The translations under genes and the position numbers were made by a program. 64,000 bases of DNA from a virus. Below, piece after piece: positions 39,850 through 63,205 of this stretch. Within the stretch, counting starts at the first letter, position 1, and each line of letters begins with the position of its first letter. The notes beneath the pieces are model-generated. The model ran no database searches, had not been told where the DNA came from, and worked only from the letters and a program-made list of their open reading frames with translations. The stretch covers positions 32,001-96,000 of the IMG/VR virus record IMGVR_UViG_3300046758_000611, one strand, 5' to 3'.

Positions 39850-40803
39850 TTATGTTGCAATAATTCTTCCTTTTATTTTTCTAAATTTTCCGTTGGCAAC
39901 TTTCCTAATTCCATCGTTACTTCCACCAGTTACCACAAATTTCTGTTCTTCTATTTTTTCAGAATTAAGCAATGCCATTGCTTGTTTTTCCGTAAAACCC
40001 ATATTCATTTTATCAATTATATTGTTTGCATAGTTATCAAATGCTTCAACATATTTGTCTGATTGCATATAATAATAATCAAGTCCTCCGTTTATTTTTA
40101 GAAAATCTTGTTTTGTGATTGGTTGTCTTTCTGATTCATCTATATATGAAGTTTGTTGTGTTGTTCTTCCTTCGTGAAAAAAATAAGAAACTTCGGATGT
40201 TGTGTGTTCATTCAGTGAAACATTTCCATAATCAAGTATATCGGAATAAAACATAACATTATCTATCATACCACAAAATCTACCAATTTCAATATTATTA
40301 AAAGTAACAAATGGTCGTGTGAATCCAGTATCATGTGATCCTACATACACATTATCCACAAACAGCCTGGTAATTCCCGAAGGATAAAAATTTACTACAA
40401 CACAATGCCATGTCTCTTTTGTGAGTTTAAAAAAGAAACTTGAATCTTCACCGGATGCAGGTGTATTCCAATTTATACCAAGTTCAAGTTCTTCTTCGTT
40501 TGCGTTTACTACAACTCCTGTTCTATTATCAGTTTCAGGTGACCTATTTAACATAATACCCGAAGATGGAGCACTTTCTTGATCAAGATAAACCCAAAAC
40601 GCCATACAGGCAGAATTTGTATACACACTACTTTGTTGAACTACTTTGATATATTCGTGTGTATTTGTTTCATCTTCACTTACGTTATTTTTTAATTTAA
40701 CTATATTTCTATACTCACGATCAGGACCACCCGTAAGTAAGTCACCTCCATATAATACCCCATAGTTTGAGGTGTTGACTGAGTTTATTATTTTAACTGC
40801 CAT
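39850..40803 (-). CDS. LamG/concanavalin-like domain protein
   Basis: 317 aa; [36 protein letters not shown]. Confidence 0.65.
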
Positions 40804-43800
40804 TTTGAGTAACCTTTCTTAGTATATTAGATCCTATTGTGGTTTCAAGTTCTCCTTCGTAACAATCTCCATTACTTCGTATAAATCTAATTTTTAGAGG
40901 ATTTACAAAATTTCTTGATACTTCGATGGTCATACCACCTTGACTAAAATCACTAACATTAAACGGACATACATAGGAACGGGGAATCGTTGGTTCGGTT
41001 GAAGTATCATCAAAGCATATTGTTCCATCTTCTGATGATGAAACTTTAATACCCAAGTTGCCAAAATCACCAACCAAGTTTTCTATTTCTAATATAACAC
41101 CCAACTGACCACAACAATCAATTGGAGTTTGTGTTGGAGTTGGAGTTTGTGTTGGAGTTGGAGTTGGGGAAGGTGTGATAGTTTGTGTGGGTGTGGGTGT
41201 GGGGGTGAGTGTTGGGGTCTGCGTGAGTGTTGGGGTCTGCGTGGGTGTTAGGGTCTGCGTAGGGGATGGTGTGGGTGTTGGGGTTCGTTCCAATCGTGTA
41301 AATGGATAATTAACATTAAATTCGGGAGACACAGGTAAAATAGTTTCATAACAGACATTATCGTTTGTCACAAATCGTATCAATGTTTCGTTTACTAATT
41401 TTGAAGGTAAAGAAAGTGTCAACCCACCATTACTAAAATCTTCTTCAACAAATGGACAACTATAAATTATTGTAGTTGGGTTGTTCGTACTTCGTTCTAA
41501 ATTGTTGTAACATAGTGTACCTGCAATAGATGTAGTTACAACTATTGATTCAGATTCAATTGTATTTTGGCCCTCATTTAAGTTTTTTGTTTTTAATAAA
41601 CCTTGACAACACTCATATGGTGTGGGTGTCTGTGTTGGGGTTTGGGTTGGTGTGGGTGTCTGCGTTGGTGTCTGCGTTTGAGTAGGAGTTGGTGTTGGTG
41701 TTGGTGTTGATGTTTGCGTTGGTGTCTGAGTAGGAGTTGGTGTTGGAGTTTCTGCCAAAGATGTGGGTGTTTCTAAAACAAATGGTGTGGATGTGTAGGT
41801 TGGTGTTTCTGTGGGAGTTGGTGTTGGTGTTAAGTCAACATTGTCAGTTTCTTCAAACTTAAAATAAAATTCAGGTTGTTTATCAAGAGATAACATCGAT
41901 GGATATTGATCTTGTCTAAGGGTATTTGTGGTAACAACATTTTCAGTTGGTTTGTCTTCGATAAACCAAAATGAATCGTGCGATGCGTTTGTACTTATAG
42001 ACTTTGTTCTAACGACACATGGAGTGTAATTCAAATTTCCGTTAGAATCAACGGTAGTAGTTGAATTGTTAGTTGTTGACTTACTGAATATATATCTTTT
42101 CTTCCTGCTTCTAATTTTAGGTACACCACTTTCTATGAAATCACCACGATTTCCAATATCCACAAGGTTGTATCCTGAAAATTCAGTTGTTATATCGTGT
42201 AATATATTATTTCGTATAATGTGTTGATTTAGATCATAATCCAAATCAAAATTAGAAATAGAAAAATTTATATCAGTTGGTAAATTATATCTTTTAGAAT
42301 TTGTATAATTTTGAAATCGTCTTATATTAAAATTAAATTTAACATTATACTCTATTTCTTTTATATAATCTGGAACATGAACTCTTGAATTATTTGTTGA
42401 AATGACATCAGATGCTTCCCATGACTTCTGTGTATAGTTTATGTTTCTCCAATTGGCACTTTTGCTTTTATTATTAATTGTATTATTTACTGATATTGTA
42501 AGTGGTGGAACAAAAAAGTCACTTCTGTTAAAATTATCATTAAAATTAAATTCATATTTTAAAAAATCACCCAGTTCCGACGAGAATATATGTGGTGATG
42601 ATTTCATACTAATTGGACAAATGTTTGTTTTTATATTTTCATATGAATTTTTTGTGTAACCAAAATAAAAAATAGAAGTTTTGTGGATCGTGTTTGACCC
42701 GGAGTCTTTAAATTGTGGTAATAGAAAATCTTCTCCCAAAAATAAATTTTCATCAAATGACCAAAATATATCAACAGATTTTAAGTCAACATTTCTAATT
42801 AAATTTTTGATTTGAATTTCATTTTCCTCGTTTGTTTGTAAGTTTGTTAAAATTGTTTCCGTAAAATATTCACTCGTTTGATTTACAAGTGGGTGGGGTC
42901 TAAAGCTATCAAGTTCATATCCCCTCGGTTCTCCGTATATATTTTTTTTGATTTTATATGTGTAAATAGCAATCGGTAAAAGTGGTCGTTTATATGAAGT
43001 GTATGGCAATTTTTGTGTATTTGTTGTTTGTACTGTGTAAATTGGTTGTCTTTCTCCGACACACCCATCACATACATTATCAACGATATATCCAAATTTT
43101 AATTCATCGTCTTCAAATTTACGCAAACTTGCGTTTTTCCAAGCAAATGCGTTTTCTTCGTTTTCATCAAAGTTATTAATCTCTGAATTTGTATTTGAAT
43201 ACCCGACTCGTAAGTTAAGTAGTCTTTTCTCACAATTGGTAGCAGAATTTTCAAACATAACATAATAAGAACCCTCGTCCCTCGGATCATCGTTTACCAA
43301 TTTCCATGAAAGATTTAAATTATCATAAAAAATATACCAACCATTTACATTTTTATACAATGGATATTCATTTAGGAAATCACTGGTTTTCATGTAAAAT
43401 CCATCAACACCATCATACCTACCTCGTATATTTCTATTTGAAATAGTTATATATGGTAATATTTTATCTTCATTCAATTTACGATTAGTTAATATGCAAA
43501 ATGTTTTTGTTTTATCATCATGATATTCTCCATATGCAGGTAAAATTAAATTCAAAGAACGTACAGATACTGTCCATGCCAAGTTTTTGTTACTTATCGT
43601 TTGAAATGTTTTGAATAATCTTTTATTGGGAATCAAAACAAAAGAATCACCAGTTGCCACAAAATTTGTTTTTGATTCAATATTAATATCTTCGTCTGAT
43701 TTATATAAATCCTCAACGGCAATAACATCTGACTCATAAACCGACTCGTGGATTGGTGCATGAACTATTGTACCAACTTGAAAGTCAAAATTATTGTTGC

Positions 43801-46800
43801 TTTCATTTAAAGATGAATCAAACGTTGTAGTAACATTGCTCGAATTATTACGTATCCAACTTTTGTTTCTAGTCTTGTCGGCATTACTTATTACCCATTG
43901 CCACCCCTCTTTATATATAATCCACTCTCCGATGGGTTTTTGTCTATAATAAATACCAGACTGAGAACTTATTTTTTCATATTTTCCATTTACCCCTTCT
44001 CTGCTTTCTCGGAAACCAGATACCAAAACATCACCCTCCGAGTTAAAAACATTCGTATTTTTTGGAAAATAAAAATCACCCCCACCACCGTTTAGTGTGC
44101 TAAATTTAATAGGCCTACTTGATGCCTTTTCTTCATCAAATATGTAAACTAAATTTTCGTTTTTAAAATATTCTGATTCAGACTGGCCACTTCCGAGTGG
44201 GTCTATATTAGATAAAATCCACCGATCAAACAACACACTATAAAAAACATACCACCAAGTATTTTTATTATTTGTGAAAACTTCTTTTCCATTGAATGTT
44301 TCATACCCACGTATATATGTTCCATTTGCAGAATACATTACTCCGTGAAATGATGAAATTTTAAAACCAGAATATTCTCTTTCATTTAGTATCAAGAAAA
44401 AATTCTCAATTCCTCTCTGTGTGTATGTGTAACTGTCGTTGGAGAGTTCGTTTATTTCTATTTTATAGTTAGTGTACTCATCATTCATGTTCAACATAAG
44501 TTTACTGTCTAATACATCTTCTGAATATATAACTATTTTTTCACTTATCTGACTTTCGTTTTTACTAAACTCTCGTATGATACCCTGATCAAAAAACAAA
44601 GAATGCTTTGCTCTAAGAGCAAAATATACAAATGAATCATTTTTAGTTGCGGTTGATTTTAATATCTCGTTAAAATCACTATAGTCTGTTGGTTCGAAAA
44701 CTATTTTGTCAGACTCCGACTCTATGAGAGATTGTTCCCATTTACTATCACAGTTTGAAAGAAAATTTTCACTCTTTCCATCAATAGTTTCTGTTTTAAA
44801 TTCATCAAGATAGCAAACAAAATAAAATTTATTATCATACGAAACTCCCGCATCTGTGTATGTGTTTATTGTAAACTCAAAGTAACAAGTTCTAAGTCCA
44901 TCTTCGTTTAATAAGACATTGCTTTTTGCTTCCTCAAGTGCCGTTTCATTTAAAACAAGATTTTCATTTTCAGAAACCTCATTAGTTAAGTTATCTAGCA
45001 AATCTTGCTCACCTCCTCCGTATGAAATTGGTAAATTTGTTGGTAGTTTATAGTCTCCAATTGAATTTTTAGAGTTAGGAACAAACCCACTTCCATACTC
45101 TACCTTCTCAGGTGAATCACTTTTTAAAAAGGGTGTTGTAAATTTATATATACGATTTTCAGATAATGCATTTAAAAATTTATTACTATATTTTATGTTG
45201 TGTCCAGTTAGTGTTCCTTTTTTATTTAAAATAAGAGTTATATCGAGTAAATCAACATCTGGTATTTGTGTGCTAATTTCTTCAATTTGACCAATCTTCC
45301 AAATAAAAGAAACTTCATTTTTGATTTGAATTTGTTTATACTCGTTTAGTAATTGTTGTGAACAAGCTAGTAACTTTAAACTTCTAATATTATTTGTTTT
45401 AAGTTTGATTGTAGTCGCAATGTCATAATCTAACATAAAAGGTTTTTTAATGACATCGTTTACCATCACATCATACGAAGATGCATATAACCCAGAAGAA
45501 GTTCGTATTCCATTTTCATAAAAAATACTATAATCAGATTTTCGTATCCTAGCATCTATTTGTAGTTTTTCAGTTAGTTGCACGGTGTGTTTATTCTCAC
45601 TTGGAAGTGGAATAAAATCGTAATAAGAAAAATTTTTAAATCTACCGGTTGAGTTTGCATTGCTCTGTATTACTGGTACTAAATTAGAAGCACGAAATCC
45701 TAAGTTAAAATCAACTATATCATTTATACTTAACTCACCACTCGAATTTACCCCATCCGATGCTATATACGGAGAATTACAATCATAATAAGAAAATTCA
45801 TTAAAAACTTTACCAAGAACAACTAAATTAGATACATATCCGGTAAATAATCTTCCTATAAATTTACCAGACTGAACATTAATATTTTCAAACGAACCGT
45901 CAAATATTTTTTTATTATTTTCTGTATACTCGTAGAATTTACCATTATCATTTAAATCGATGTACCTACCATAAAACTCTCCATATATTCTGCAATTCAA
46001 TATCCCTCTAATATAACCCCCACCAACACGATTAATTTCAGAAGAGTGAGTATTTATTTGAAAAATTCTGTCATTTTTTATGTTTGTTGCTACGGTTGCT
46101 CCTCCATCCGAGTTTACATAGAATGTACTTATTGACGATGATACCTCCATTGATTGTAGTGGTGTTTTTACACAACCACCATCAAACTCACTACACATAT
46201 TAGAAAATAATACAGGTAAATTATCTACATTATTATTTGCAGTATCATTCTTTTTTTCTTTAATCCAATAATCCGCATCATCAAATATAGAAGGTTCTTG
46301 CAAGAACTCAGGATTTTTATTTATCAACATCCAACAATTATATGATTTACTAAAAAATATAAACCAAGTATTTGATTTGTTTTTGAATAATGGTTTGTTA
46401 TTTATATTTTTTTCAGAAGTGTATTCACCATTTGCTGAATAAAAACCAATGTACTGATCCCCTATTTTGGTATTTTTTATAAAACCTGAAATTGTTAATA
46501 CAATTGAATTATATACAAATGAATTTGTTCCTTTATTTTTATTTGAATTAAATAAATGCAAATTTTTGTTTATTTTTTCTACTTTATATTCATTTCCATC
46601 CGATGAATATATACCATTGTTTATAAATGTTCCAAAAACTCGTTCATCAAAGTCATTGTCAGGTATTATATTTCCTGTATAATTGTCGTTGTATGCATTT
46701 CCTTTGATTCTATCAATTGACATACTACTATCGATACTTAAAATATTTTTATCTCCTGGTTTAAATTTTACTTTAGAATCTTCGTTTGCGAAATTTGCAA

Positions 46801-49800
46801 TATTTTTTCTATCGTAACTTCTTGATCTTAAATTAATTTGTTTTAATTTCTCTATACTTTTGTTCGTTTTTGTTCCGTCTATAATAGTAGTTTCAATTAC
46901 ATTTTCAACTTTGGGTGATTTTATTTTATGTCGTTCTAGAATACTTGGTTCTATCAAAAGACCAGAAATTAGTCTTGTTCTTGCTGGCACCAACTTTTCT
47001 ATATTCTCAAAAAACGAAGCATCTACATAGGTTTTTAATATATTTAGAAATGCTTGCCAATCTATCTTACCAAACCCTTCTTTATAGAACACTTTTCTAA
47101 ATTGTTCAAATTTTTTGTATTCTTTATTGTATAAATCAAGTGGGTCTCCGATATATTCACCTATATCGTAGTTTCCAAAAAACCTTATTATTTCTCTGTT
47201 TAATATATCAGTTGGACTTATAGTGCATAAAACCGTATTGTTATCAATGGTTACTCTGTCAAGTTGCTTTCTTGTTACACTTTTTCTTGGATTTAAGACT
47301 CCTGTTCTTTTTTGTTTTTCATGCCTGATTTTTGCATTACTGAATGCCTGCGATCCGAAACTTGGAAGTCTTGCATACTGAACCGCTGCACTTCCTTTAA
47401 AGTCAAACGGATATTCTGTGCTTGTAAAGTTATATGCTTTTATATACTCCACCGAACTCGCAACCGCAGAGTTTTCTAGTTTTCCGTATCCACCGTCCGT
47501 GGATTGGGTGCTTATATCATGTGGTAAATCAAAGTTTAACTTTACAAACAAATTATCAACAACCAATTTAGGGTCATCCAAACTATATCCTTGGTCGTAA
47601 AATATATGGTCATTAAAATTATCAGAAGTAATTTCTTTTTTATATAATCTTAATTTATCAAGTTCTCCACAAAACAAAGAAGAAGAATAATTACCAACAT
47701 ATAAATTATTATCATCAGTTTCGTGTAAATCACTACAAAAGTTCTGATATTCATAGTCTGTTATTTTTATACTAGAAATTTCGTTCAAAGTAACTTTTCC
47801 GTCAATTTGCTTTCTAATGTATGTTTCTATAAAATATGATGATAGTTTGGTATCATCTTTTACTATTTGCAAAAGAACATGAATGTATTCATCTGTGAAA
47901 AGATATACAGGATTTTTTTGTTCGGTTGGTGTATATATTTTATCATTTAATACAAACGAAGAACCTATATTTTTATATTGAAAATAGAATCTTCCGTATT
48001 CATAATTTTTATTTGAATCAAATTCAATGCAAAATTTCCATGTATTTGTTTCTAATAGTATTATGTCACTTACACTACCAGAATTTAGTTTTTCTGCTTC
48101 TATGATGTTTTTTACTTGTAATTCATTTAATTTAAAGCACAACTCGATGGATTTTATTTGATGTGAGTTCCATTCTATCTCTAGATATTTTGACGAGTCT
48201 AGTCCACCAATGTCATTATTAAACACTAAAGAAAAACTATAAGAATCAAATTCAAACCAATTATCACCACTTGATGTTTCGGTTGAAAGTCCACCATATT
48301 CTTTTATACTTAAGAAGTGATTAGGAAGTCCATAGCACTTCATTAATGCACCGATTGACTTTTCAGTACCTATGTGTTTTATTATATAAGGTAGGTTATT
48401 TAGTATACGTCTCCATATTGTCGATCTTCTTGTAGAAATCAACGATGACGTACTATTAACCTCTGCACTTGCATCATCACCAGAGTCATCTTCACCCGTA
48501 AACGATAATCCTAATGATGACAACATATATTGTACTAATTTGTTTGGAATTCCTCTATCTGGATGGTTAGATGCGTTTCTAACTTTTCCCATGTTGTCTA
48601 TATAAGACACAAGTGTGTCAAACTGCACTCCAACTGAATTTAGAAAAAGTAAAAAGTCATTGTTGTCTTCATTTCGTGTGAGGAATTCAGGTATGCTATT
48701 TACAAGGGAAGCATCATTTTTATCATCGTAAGTTTTTGCATCTTTTGCTTGAAATAAATACCACTGATAAGTCCCTGTTGATACAAAATCCTCGATTTTC
48801 TCAGGAAGAATCTCTGGTAGTCTTTTCAAAACACCTTCGTGATTTTGAATGCTTTCGTATCTAACCGAAACAACTTCATCTTTAAATGAGTTACTACAAT
48901 TAGAACTTAGTTTAATTTCGTTACTTATATAACTCAGTGTTGAAATTTTAAACCAATCTGCGTTAGCAGTTGTTCTTTCTTTATTCGAAACTACCCAACG
49001 TTTGTGTGTTTCGTTAGTTTCTTCCTCAAATACTACTTCGTAGAAAATGTAAAAGTTGGAAATTCTATGCTTGAATTCACGTTGATTGTTAAAAAACCCA
49101 ATTTGTTCATATGTACCGTTTGCCCAACCAAGAGAACCAAATGTATCTTGGTTTTTGGCTATACCACTTACCTCTAAATTATTTGTCCGTGGCCAGGTCG
49201 TTGATACTTCTGATATATATGTGGTATATGCAATTGATGTTTGCTCTTTATTTTCATCCTCGTATGTCCATAGCAGATTTGAAATAATTGGAGTGCTACT
49301 ATCTGTAAATGCTTCATCATTTATTGAAGATAAACGCACAACTATTTTATTTGCTGTGGAAAATGAAAAGTAAGGATTTGGTGTTTCACTTTTAACAGAA
49401 CTTGACTTGTCATGTTTTTTTCGAAACCACCTTCCTATTTGATTGCTTATTTCAGATGCAAGTGCATGGGGTTGCATTCCTTCGTATATACTAATATCTC
49501 CGTAGTTTGGTGTCTTTTTGGATGTAAACTTTATTGTAATAAAGTCATTATCAGGTAGATTTATTTCAAATCCATATATCTGCGGAATAGACTGATTTCT
49601 ATTAATCGTTGTCTGTTCACTTGGTTGGTTTGTTATACTATCTAAATTATTAAATTCTATGATCGCAGTTGCATCATCACTTTTATTTTCAAAAAACAAA
49701 TATCTTTCGTATCCGTCTAGTTTTGCTAAAATTTCACTTTTTGTTTTATTTTCTTTTGAAATTTCAAGTGTTCTAAGAAGACGTATCGAGTTTTCAGAAA

Positions 49801-51328
49801 TTTTTGCTTCAATGTTACCTATACTTGTTTCGTATTGTAAATTGTATATTTCTTTTTCTATATTTTTTATCTTGTGAACTATAACTGAGAAGTTTGTCAT
49901 TTTGAACAAAAACGAGTCAATTCTAGATTTTGCAGAAGAGTATTTAACAAAATTATTAAAATCTGAATAATCTACATTCAAATTTAAGTCAGATGATGAT
50001 GATGTATTGAAGTATTTTGCTACATCATCGGTTACATTTTCAATTAAATCTTCTTGGTTATACTCTTTCGTTCCACGTGATGTACTTACTAAAGTTAAAT
50101 CTGGTTGTCTCAGTTTTTTTGTTGGGACAATTGATGTTTTATTCAGTATTGTTGTAAAATACAGATCATCTGAATAATATAATCCACTTATATACATTCT
50201 TGTATTTATTTCAATGTCTTGGTCAAGTGGTTTGGCAAGTTTAATTACAATTGGAGTATATGCAGAATCCGATACGACCTCGGTTGACTTTGCGTATTTT
50301 ACAATAGGAATTCCATTACCAAATCCAAGATTAATTATGTTATTTAAAAATCTATCAAATCTTCTTGCGTAAACTTCATTTACATAACCCACATCATAAG
50401 AATACATTATCAAATCACGATAAAACAAAACGGAAGTATCGGATGCTGGCAATAAACTTAGTGCCGGGTGTTTTGAGATTATATAGTTTACTGCAAGTGA
50501 ATATTCTTCGTAGAAATCTGACTCAGCAAACACATTGTTGTATTTTGTTAAGATTAAGTTGCGATATAGTTTTTTACACTTATCATAAAACTTATTTATA
50601 TCAATTAGTAAATCATTTTTACTTAAGTTTAATGATTTTGTAAGTTCGTTAAATTTTGTTTCAAAGTCCGCTATCTGCAACTCAAGTTCATTAAATATAT
50701 CTGAAGACGAGTAGTTTATTGTTTTTATAAACTTTTCGGTTTCATAAAAAATATGAGACACTACAATTCTTCTGTTCGCAAAGTTTTCAAATTCAAACCC
50801 CAGTGCAACATCCTCTGACTTATTTGATGCACGGGATGCTTCTGGTATTATCTTAATCTCGTTTCTACTTGGAGATATTTCTTTAATTATTAGAAAAGAA
50901 CTTGACTCAGACGAACCAACTATATCATTACGCATAGATATACCAACTTTATATGCACTTGGAGCAGTTGCTCCAAGTTTTTTCAGTTGGTCAGTAAATG
51001 ACAATATTAATTTTCCATCTTTTACGAAATATCGTGAACCAATTACATCTATACTCCCTTGTACATTATCATCGTTATAATCAAAAAAATTAAAGTTTAC
51101 TTTTTTAAAGTCATCATCACCAGGAATAGTTGACCAATACAATAAATCATTAGAAGTAGAGTATACCGAAAACTCAACTATATCCTTCGAGGATTTTCCA
51201 AAAATAAGTTTTGTTGGTTTTTCGTCTAATACAATATCAAGTAAACTTTCGTCTACTACATACCCACGTTGAAACGGTTCGTTTTCTTTAATATTGGGTT
51301 CTTTAATATGTTGTATTAACGAATTCAT
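40793..51328 (-). CDS. giant virion structural protein (baseplate wedge/fibre-like) with LamG-like region, internal repeats and P/T linkers
   Basis: 3511 aa uninterrupted ORF; [62 protein letters not shown]. Confidence 0.8.
41120..41285 (-). repeat. Pro/Thr (PT/PTQT) coding repeat, tract 2 of giant protein
   Basis: [17 protein letters not shown]...; GGTGT/GGAGTT-rich DNA on plus strand. Confidence 0.9.
41618..41830 (-). repeat. Pro/Thr coding repeat, tract 1 of giant protein
   Basis: [11 protein letters not shown]...TPTQTPTP. Confidence 0.9.
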
Positions 51329-60955: not shown

Positions 60956-61207
60956 TTAGTTTAGTTCCCTTTGTTTGAAGTCTTCTATTATTTGCTTAAT
61001 TTCATCAAATGCAACACCGACTTCATCGTCTTTTTCAAAAATTTCTCGTTGATCAACATTTTTAATATTTTTATACAAATCTTCAAATTTATTTCTTATG
61101 TCAATCGTCCAATTTTCATATATTATATTTTTTCTATATAAATTGAAAGATGTATAAAGTGTTATAAGTAACAACATTGACAGAAATATAAGTAGATATA
61201 TATACAT
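60956..61207 (-). CDS. small membrane-anchored protein
   Basis: Likely start ATG 61207; N-terminal TM YIYLLIFLSMLLLITLY then coiled coil, FEKDDEVG. Confidence 0.65.
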   Translation of the reverse strand: MYIYLLIFLSMLLLITLYTSFNLYRKNIIYENWTIDIRNKFEDLYKNIKNVDQREIFEKDDEVGVAFDEIKQIIEDFKQRELN

Positions 61208-61249
61208 TCCTATATAATAGTCTAACATATATTGATATGTCAATAAAAT

Positions 61250-62020
61250 TTATTTATTATCATCTTTTTTTTCTTTAAATGGAACATTTCCGAGGGTACT
61301 TCCTGGAATATACCTTTTTTTGTATACAATTTTCCCTTCGTATTTTTTATATGCATCCATGCTTGTTTTTTTCCAAGGAACATAATAAGGTCCTCGTGTG
61401 GGTGGTTCTGGTTCAACTTCCTGGGTGTCGTACATTGGGGTTGATGTTGAATTTACATCTTCTTTTATTTTATTTTTTATTATATAACTTTCAGTTTTAC
61501 TTGAAAACATAGTTGGACTTGGAGTAGGACTTGGAGTTGGAGTAGGAGTTGGTGTAGGGGTGGGACTTGGAGTTGGAGTGGGAGTTGGACTTGGGGTAGG
61601 AGTTGGAGTGGGAGTTGGTGTAGGAGTTGGTGTAGGGGTGGGACTTGGAGTTGGAGTGGGAGTTGGAGTGGGAGTTGGTGTAGGGGTGGGACTTGGAGTT
61701 GGAGTGGGAGTGGGAGTTGGTGTAGGAGTTGGACTTGGGGTAGGAGTTGGACTTGGGGTAGGAGTTGGAGTTGGAGTTGGACTTGGTGTAGGAGTTGGTG
61801 TTGGGGTGGGGGTAGGGCTTGGAGTTGGAGTGGGGGTTGGGGTAGGGCTTGGAGTTGGAGTGGGGGTTGGGGTAGGGCTTGGAGTTGGAGTGGGAGTTGG
61901 ACTTGGTGTAGGAGTTGGAGTGGGAGTTGGACTTGGGGTGGGAGTTACTTCAATTACATCTTCTATAAAATCACCTTCTTCTTGGAATTTATCAGCAAAG
62001 GGTAGATTATCTATCCAATT
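61250..62020 (-). CDS. Pro/Thr-rich frame, probable -1 frameshift extension of the 62011..63105 gene (includes ORF 61250..61510)
   Basis: Frame reads [25 protein letters not shown](TP/SP)n into MFSSKTES...; no stop between 62020 and 61252; no ATG before 61510. Confidence 0.7.
61511..61945 (-). repeat. about 145-codon Pro/Thr/Ser repeat
   Basis: GGAGTT/GGACTT/GGGGTA hexamer array on plus strand; near-perfect 30-bp units at 61811-61894. Confidence 0.92.
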
Positions 62021-63105
62021 TTTTTTTTCGGCAACTCTTCTCCTAGAGTCATTTTCCCACCTACCATAATATTATATGCCAATACAAGTGCAACTGCAAC
62101 AGGGTCAAAAACTAAAACAATTACAATAATAAACCACTTTACAACTTGGTCTACTGGCATTCCAAATGATTCTGCTATAAAACGAAAACTACCAATATCA
62201 GTTGCACGAATTCCTTCTTTTTCTTTTAATATCTCTGCTTGGTTTTCTTTTATTTTGTCGTATTTATCTTCAATAGTGGTTACATTATCCAGGTCGTTTG
62301 TTGTATCACGAAGACCATTTACTTTTTCTACAAATTTATCATATTCACTTGAAATTTGATCATCAATTTTGGCAAGAGCATCATTGTATGATTTTGTTGC
62401 AGAAGTTTCTTCGTCTGTTATTGCTGATAATGATTTTGCGATAGAATCTCGCTCAGGTTGTTGTGTTATCCTTAGTTCTTCTATTTTCTTTTTGTTATTA
62501 CTAAATAACCCACCTGGTTTTGATTCTAATTCACTTTTTGCTTTATCCAATACCGCAAGACGATCCATAAATTGTTGTCTACGAAATCCTCTTGCTTCGG
62601 TGTCTGTTTTGTTTCTATTAGCAAGTGCTTCCTGTCGTTTTCTTCCGTCTGCCACATAATCGTCATAGATTTTTTGAAAACCTACTATTGTTTCAGTTTT
62701 TTTATCTTCTACTGTTACATCCGTATTTTTAAGTGTTTCAATTTCAGTTTCAATTACTACTATTTCTTTATTTAGGGTTTCTATGTTATTTTCATGCATT
62801 TCCACCCTTGATCGTGTGTCATCGTAAGCATCACTTAGAAATCCGTAAATGCCCAACGAGGTTATTCCAATCAGAACCACAACTGCAATTGTACAATACC
62901 ATTTTAATATCCTTGGTATTCTTTCCCAATAACGGTATAAAAATGAAGTCATTGCTAATTTTCCTGCTTCAAGAACTCCCGCCATTACCATGGCTGCGAT
63001 AGCCGCACCTGCAAATAATAACCCAATACCTCGCACAGAAAAGAAAGCAGCCGTTCCTGCTACTGCCAGTGCCAACCCACCTATAATCGCAGTAAATACT
63101 TTCAT
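62011..63105 (-). CDS. membrane protein: 3 N-terminal TM helices, long coiled coil, C-terminal TM
   Basis: 364 aa; AFFSV.G...[42 protein letters not shown]; ends at A10 run PKKKIG*. Confidence 0.85.
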
Positions 63106-63172
63106 ATTAATACATATCTCCCAATTCTATTTTATTAAACCTTATCAATGTATATAAATATAATATAGTTAT

Positions 63173-63205
63173 AAAAAAAGAGGGTAAAATTAAATTTACC
63201 CTCTT
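63173..63205 (-). terminator. rho-independent terminator after hsp20
   Basis: AAGAGGGTAAA-ATTAAA-TTTACCCTCTT with A run. Confidence 0.8.

Follow-up and report, generated by a model that had tools for sequence, protein, structure and literature searches.

The window analyzed here, a stretch of 64,000 nucleotides to which all positions refer unless stated otherwise, belongs to a 170-kb IMG/VR virus record with 33% GC that stems from an uncultured marine T4-like phage. The nearest relatives of its baseplate gene are found in Microcystis phage Mel-JY01 and Flavobacterium phage immuto (35-41% identity). On the minus strand, which carries all real genes in this region, a 364-aa membrane protein is encoded between hsp20 and a baseplate module, with a small transmembrane (TM) protein also encoded in the neighborhood. 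The 3' end of the gene reads CCG AAA AAA AAA ATT GGA TAG and contains a run of ten A residues, A10 (Table 1). When the -1 frame is entered at 62020, 256 open codons follow up to a TAA stop at 61250-61252, such that a product slipped at the run would comprise 362 + 256 = 618 aa; the next gene starts 6 nt past the end of this long frame. A first-pass annotation of the sequence had described the gene end with its A10 run, and the 256 open codons with about 145 Pro, Thr and Ser residues followed by an 86-aa tail, all of which was confirmed in the sequence; the predicted isoform sizes of 364 and about 618 aa are also correct. By length alone, the run is within chance expectation (11 A/T runs of at least 9 nt in the genome versus about 13 expected). 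It is, at the same time, the sole run of this kind that lies deep in coding sequence and the sole one that links two long open frames, while the other ten are intergenic or sit at the very 5' start of an open frame.

Table 1. Features of the locus in window coordinates, in the direction of transcription
Feature	Position	Strand	Remarks
Zero-frame gene, short isoform, 364 aa	62011..63105	-	TAG stop at 62011-62013
Three N-terminal TM helices, residues ~3-90	62836..63099	-	AF2 helices 2-31, 35-62, 65 onward
Antiparallel coiled-coil hairpin, residues ~91-300	62206..62835	-	AF2
Fourth TM helix, residues ~318-349, invariant VFDP motif	62059..62154	-	AF2 and conservation
Recoding block CCG-A10-TTGGATAGATAA	62007..62031	-	Zero-frame stop two codons past run
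Proposed slip site A10	62019-62028	-	Appears as T10 on + strand
First 25 residues of -1 extension, conserved acidic/aromatic segment	61946..62020	-	Present in all relatives
Pro/Thr(/Ser) repeat tether, ~145 residues, -1 frame	61511..61946	-	TRF periods 18/30/48
C-terminal module of predicted long isoform, 86 aa	61250..61510	-	Conserved motifs including GSTLGNVP

Directly after hsp20, a strong intrinsic terminator is present on the minus strand (63178-63205; an 11-bp stem followed by T7), and sigma-70-like hexamers (63129-63188) follow upstream of the membrane-protein gene. Because the gene is preceded by these elements in this order, it probably has its own transcript start. On the other side of the locus, a 95-aa open reading frame with a TTG start (60956-61243, minus strand) overlaps a near-consensus promoter match (TTGACA-18-TATTAT, 11/12); translation may in fact begin at an internal ATG and give rise to a shorter protein with a single TM helix.

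The 364-aa protein belongs to an unnamed and almost entirely viral family with more than 1400 homologues in databases. Neither the protein itself nor its distant homologues matched a family in Pfam, NCBIfam or PHROG, and the ESM Atlas returned unnamed viral clusters only. In the AF2 model, the third TM helix runs on into a helix of about 130 residues that extends up to the tip of the hairpin, after which return helices, an amphipathic helix and the fourth TM helix follow (helix 65-195, turn 196-203, return helices; mean pLDDT 79). The residues of the G198-G199-x-F201 tip are invariant. A Foldseek comparison with the PDB yielded generic coiled coils only, such as the arms of SMC proteins. Across 30 homologues, the loop between TM2 and TM3 is conserved as basic (mean of 4.6 K+R), the segment after TM4 is also basic (3.0 K+R), and the segments flanking the hairpin are acidic. 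Going by the positive-inside rule alone, we infer that the hairpin would be periplasmic and that the C-terminus, including the slipped tail, would reside in the cytoplasm. The first-pass annotation had envisaged a mucin-like stalk on a 4-TM membrane protein: the Pro/Thr-rich tail and the four TM helices are indeed there, but the exposed location implied by a stalk is at odds with the cytoplasmic placement suggested by the positive-inside rule. A Cys-rich insert in the tail of two relatives (see below) would better suit an extracytoplasmic location.

The genetic environment of the homologues differs from phage to phage and points to no single function. In Mosig and immuto, they are encoded near lysis genes, in XacN1 and Xoo-sp13 among replication genes and in Mel-JY01 among hypothetical genes; the XacN1 paper makes no mention of the homologue, ORF242. 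A role in lysis, suggested by the situation in Mosig and immuto, is not borne out in the other three phages. An assignment as an Rz-like spanin was also rejected, as the only indication was a weak match to PHROG 739 (E = 0.0057), the protein has four TM helices and its placement near lysis genes is inconstant. With the tail assembly chaperones G/GT of phage lambda, the locus would share a -1 frame change that is conserved across many phages and two proteins with a common N-terminus. However, it lies next to hsp20, the small TM protein and the baseplate genes instead of between tail tube and tape-measure genes, and neither homology nor any match to chaperones was detected, such that this candidate was dismissed as well and the earlier placement of the site outside the classical tail-chaperone context holds.

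Within IMG/VR, 38 loci are related to the 364-aa protein (64-97% identity) and 14 are related to the tail. All junction-bearing loci among these read CCG-A10-TTGG(A/G)TAG, with the zero-frame stop two codons on and the -1 frame open. The recoding block (Table 1) is near-invariant across 26 unique junctions, with variation restricted to GGA/GGG and GAT/GAC, and the synonymous sites flanking it vary freely. In a third subclade (61-75% identity), A10 is preceded by CCG or CCC and followed by CTGG, a change from AAT to AAC that is synonymous in the -1 frame. Thus, as the first-pass annotation had proposed to check, homologues at 61-97% identity also end at the same poly-A site with a -1 frame that is open into the conserved C-terminal module, and not a single one is in-frame. 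More distant relatives (at most 49% identity) continue in frame beyond TM4 with tails that differ in sequence and are in some cases rich in Thr, and the homologues from Mosig and immuto lack the A run; the proposed recoding is therefore specific to one clade of the family. Outside this clade, the 335-aa database protein P0077 ends with ..KKKVTG right after TM4 and its relatives with 80% identity (IMG/VR loci L097-L099) are in-frame forms of 424-457 aa; P0077 could represent either another slip site or a disrupted gene.

The length of the run was assessed with a search pattern that allowed A9 to A12 and matched 36 IMG/VR and 33 metagenome contigs, among them TARA contigs and AACY020451454.1, which we take to be a Sanger-sequenced GOS contig. 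Exactly ten A residues were counted in 36/36 IMG/VR contigs and 32/32 homologous metagenome contigs, the remaining metagenome match being an unrelated chance match. A9, A11 or A12 did not occur among the approximately 70 matching contigs, all homologous ones being A10, and the DNA consensus at the run is uniform across all assemblies. At the level of assemblies, this settles whether the run is A10 or A11 in favor of A10 and, together with the homologues that share the site and the open -1 frame, it supports the earlier suggestion of a programmed frameshift or slippage.

Several lines of evidence indicate that the -1 frame is translated and that translation passes through the run. Over the 18 codons after the run, the entropy in 27 unique junction sequences amounts to 4.9, 2.6 and 14.6 at positions 1, 2 and 3 of the -1-frame codons, and the third-position wobble of this frame begins directly after the run. 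In the window, the -1 frame is open for just 17 codons 5' of the run and contains no ATG, GTG or TTG there; the same holds for 29 of 35 unique relatives, in which the stretch from the preceding stop to the run is devoid of these codons. The first possible start 3' of the run is usually located more than 100 codons into the frame, beyond the repeat, as is the ATG at 61510 in the window, and the view that recoding is the only plausible way to translate the repeat is thereby supported. In addition, the -1-frame codon after the Trp is always ATA, or GTA where Val is encoded, a choice that keeps the zero-frame TAG in place. If the -1 frame were not translated, this compact genome would contain about 760 nt of non-coding sequence here. 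A fused form was not found in a protein search of 5.8 billion clusters with candidates of up to 637 aa; all matches with at least 63% identity are 363-379 aa long. A profile of the C-terminal module run against 1.84 billion representatives retrieved 19 short ORF fragments and no long in-frame protein. As judged from these comparisons, the site is conserved, the -1 frame is translated, it has no other entry and fused forms are absent from the libraries searched. In the output of gene callers, the locus falls apart into the 364-aa gene and a small orphan ORF with a gap of about 500 nt between them, and about 250 residues of real protein are thus overlooked in every relative.

These findings bear on several explanations that do not involve recoding. 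Homopolymers are error-prone on some sequencing platforms, and the true gene might be a single 618-aa ORF with A11. Assemblies do break at this locus: many contigs end inside the Pro/Thr repeat, about a dozen contigs end 40-330 nt past the run, and the -1 extension, which is 181 to 357 aa long among relatives, is in frame in all but one of them, L059, whose frame breaks inside the repeat while an otherwise identical gene on L060 is intact. The break in L059 is likely a misassembly, and it is the repeat and not the A run that breaks assemblies. Dozens of independent assemblies, made in different projects, agree on A10 without exception, and the choice of ATA or GTA preserves the zero-frame stop that directly follows the run. 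With the census and the lack of fused forms, neither an error in the homopolymer nor a simple gene fusion is tenable at the assembly level, and we regard an error as the source of the two frames as practically negligible. Replication slippage between A10 and A11 in the phage population, by which each genome would encode either the short or the long form, deserves somewhat more thought, given that long homopolymers are mutable in replication and that minority variants are hidden in consensus assemblies. If the locus were switching, A11 would be expected in some of the assemblies, but neither such contigs nor a fused protein in the databases turned up, which renders this form of phase variation improbable. 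It is less probable still that the downstream frame is separate, be it as a decaying frameshift remnant or as a small gene from which only the last 55-86 residues are made. Gene callers do start small ORFs at the Met of STPMYD or, in the window, at the ATG at 61510, but this Met is Leu in several relatives, most relatives lack a start before the repeat, and purifying selection in the -1 frame sets in at the run itself. Moreover, the repeat changes in length and the frame is nevertheless kept, save for the one contig that is likely misassembled, and the non-coding stretch mentioned above would remain. Finally, a consensus scan scores the hairpin and T10 on the plus strand (62000-62026) as terminator-like, so that the run might serve to terminate antisense transcription and the open -1 frame might be incidental. 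The stem is weak, its bases vary among relatives, the real genes nearby are all on the minus strand with none on the plus strand, and selection on the -1 frame would be left unexplained; there is hardly any reason to favor this interpretation, and the match is probably incidental.

This leaves the machine that slips. We propose that A10 is a programmed recoding site by which two proteins are made from one gene, with slippage of the host RNA polymerase adding one A as the main route, and assign to this reading a probability of roughly 0.6. It is favored because the whole run is invariant, CCA never precedes it, no conserved RNA structure accompanies it and the genome has no other A/T run of at least 9 nt deep in coding sequence. 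Invariance extends over the full length of the run, including two A residues outside the heptamer A_AAA_AAA. The three Lys codons at the site are always AAA and never AAG, whereas the genes overall use 68% AAA and 32% AAG, and the Pro codon before the run is always the rare CCG or CCC and never CCA, which would create A11 (CCA 67%, CCT 19%, CCC 7%, CCG 6% in these genes). AAA usage and the phase of the run are conserved partly by descent. The locus displays several features expected for transcriptional slippage, namely a sense-strand A/T run of about nine or more within a coding region, conservation of this run beyond the needs of the protein, and purifying selection on the frame reached by one added base, apparent from the entropy values and the conserved C-terminal module. 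In the window, slipped runs of A11 or A8 would lead to the long form and those of A9 or A12 to short forms ending with ..LDR.

The weightiest competitor, which we consider possible but clearly less probable, is a purely ribosomal -1 frameshift or sliding event, in which the mRNA would stay A10, tRNA-Lys would re-pair one base back and decoding would resume at AAT. A canonical X_XXY_YYZ heptamer, A_AAA_AAA within CCG AAA AAA AAA ATT, is in zero-frame phase in all relatives, and the protein made would be the same as from an A11 mRNA, such that this route fits the sequence equally well. The heptamer, on the other hand, requires neither the invariant first two A residues nor the avoidance of CCA, and we detected neither a conserved structure 5-9 nt downstream, be it a stem-loop or a pseudoknot, nor a conserved Shine-Dalgarno-like stimulator upstream. 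The weak downstream hairpin reported in the first-pass annotation does exist in the window, but it is neither stable nor conserved (RNAalifold -3.5 kcal/mol without covariation near the site; single-sequence z-score 0.3). A small hairpin upstream of the run and an upstream GGAG are confined to the closest clade and missing from the clades with 61-66% identity, and a nascent-RNA hairpin acting from there was rejected as neither conserved nor stable. Stimulators are not obligatory for frameshifting in bacteria, and their absence thus weakens ribosomal frameshifting without excluding it. In E. coli, A_AAA_AAA is a much weaker shift site than A_AAA_AAG (PMC5009743). In favor of the ribosomal route, E. 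coli ribosomes are reported to slide when they meet iterated AAA codons (PMC4363877). The E. coli RNA polymerase, in turn, is reported to slip on poly(T) more easily than on poly(A), where it needs long runs (PMC6260861), which counts against polymerase slippage; the polymerase of the host may not be E. coli-like.

If slippage of the host polymerase is indeed the main route, the following picture emerges. Unslipped expression would terminate two codons past the run and deliver the 364-aa protein with three TM helices, a coiled-coil hairpin probably located in the periplasm and a fourth TM helix. Part of the time, the RNA polymerase of the host, on which T4-like phages rely, would reiterate on the T10 template and produce an A11 mRNA, thereby placing the ribosome in the -1 frame; the in-phase A_AAA_AAA may add to this through -1 slippage or sliding of ribosomes. 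The resulting 618-aa form would combine the same membrane anchor with the acidic segment, the flexible Pro/Thr tether and the C-terminal module. A fixed ratio of the two isoforms, as put forward in the first-pass annotation, is an inference.

In its features, the site works like known poly-A recoding sites. The nearest analogue is tssM1 from Citrobacter rodentium (A11), along with tssM3 from Yersinia pseudotuberculosis, where a poly-A run shortly ahead of the stop codon in a gene for an inner-membrane protein leads by slippage to a short and a long variant with a common membrane anchor, the latter of which gains a C-terminal partner-binding part (PMC4256274). Slippage frequencies of about 15-25% have been measured for these genes, with about 20% for tssM1 (PMC4256274). 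Unlike the phage gene, they belong to bacterial type VI secretion systems, are unrelated in sequence and have had their slip demonstrated by mRNA mass spectrometry and reporters, whereas the phage gene has an A10 run and would add a disordered Pro/Thr tether with short motifs. Transcriptional slippage is also established for dnaX from Thermus thermophilus (A9) and for Shigella spa13, which together with mxiE resemble the phage site in that a homopolymer of about nine or more sets a product ratio and no RNA stimulator is needed (PMC5009743). In dnaX, a stop is reached after a few codons in either of the non-productive frames (PMC5009743), as in the window. Slippage in dnaX yields a shorter product and that in the phage gene would yield a longer one; in a further difference, some relatives of the phage site lack the nearby +1-frame stop. 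Among phages, C-terminal extension by ribosomal frameshifting is known for gene 10A/10B of T7 and for Listeria phage PSA. The major head protein of Lactobacillus phage A2 likewise occurs as a major short and a minor C-terminally extended form (cited in PMC10885494). In contrast to the protein studied here, which has four TM helices and is encoded with a 10-nt homopolymer and no conserved structure, those of A2, T7 and PSA are virion proteins with short slippery sites that are often aided by RNA structure.

While poly-A recoding as such is known, its occurrence in an undescribed phage gene family is new, and our literature search retrieved no description of recoding in this family. The census of run lengths, the third site variant, the arguments from codon choice, the lack of fused forms in large libraries, the proposed fold and topology and the Cys/Trp-rich insert in two relatives are likewise new. 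The locus adds a well-supported case of phage recoding outside tail-chaperone and capsid genes, in a lineage that recurs in marine metagenomes from several projects including TARA. As the site combines strict A10 with CCA avoidance and no RNA stimulator, it offers a clean natural system for separating the shares of polymerase and ribosome in a frame shift. It also draws attention to a large unnamed family of phage membrane proteins in which the variable C-terminal tails probably hold the functional diversity.

An alignment of the C-terminal module contains 14 invariant columns and three conserved motifs, and according to AF2 it is mostly disordered with one helix (pLDDT 61). Most likely, the module docks a partner, and its predicted disorder fits a docking peptide. 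A more daring proposal, which we put forward as no better than a long shot, is that the slip site sets the stoichiometry of a membrane-anchored platform, in which most copies would form a coiled-coil scaffold in the envelope and a minority would carry tethers of up to roughly 40 nm that capture, through their terminal motifs, a partner in phage assembly or in the envelope. The tether would possibly be glycosylated by the phage's own glycosyltransferases. If true, this function would have no described counterpart in large marine myoviruses. Were the topology reversed, the long form could bridge the periplasm like a one-piece spanin.

Some further observations concern the tail and its repeat. 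Two relatives with 64-66% identity (L032:4092-4967 and L034:4092-5162) contain an extra domain of about 115 residues that is rich in Cys and Trp and sits between the acidic segment and the Pro/Thr tract. This insert had no match in Pfam, no copy in the genome studied here and no informative match in the Atlas. A second Pro/Thr-coding repeat is present at 41134-41749 of the window (G000 73134-73749), within a 3511-aa ORF (40793-51328), and shares 71-72% DNA identity with the repeat at the A10 locus. About 29 kb past the end of the window, the genome carries a cluster of eight tRNA genes (G000:C1:125284-126049) for Ala, Ser (two), Glu, Asn, Pro(UGG), Thr(UGU) and Cys, with none for Lys. Since the long PT(E/S) tracts of this phage and its relatives are made up of Pro, Thr, Ser and Glu, these tRNAs may serve the demand that arises from them.
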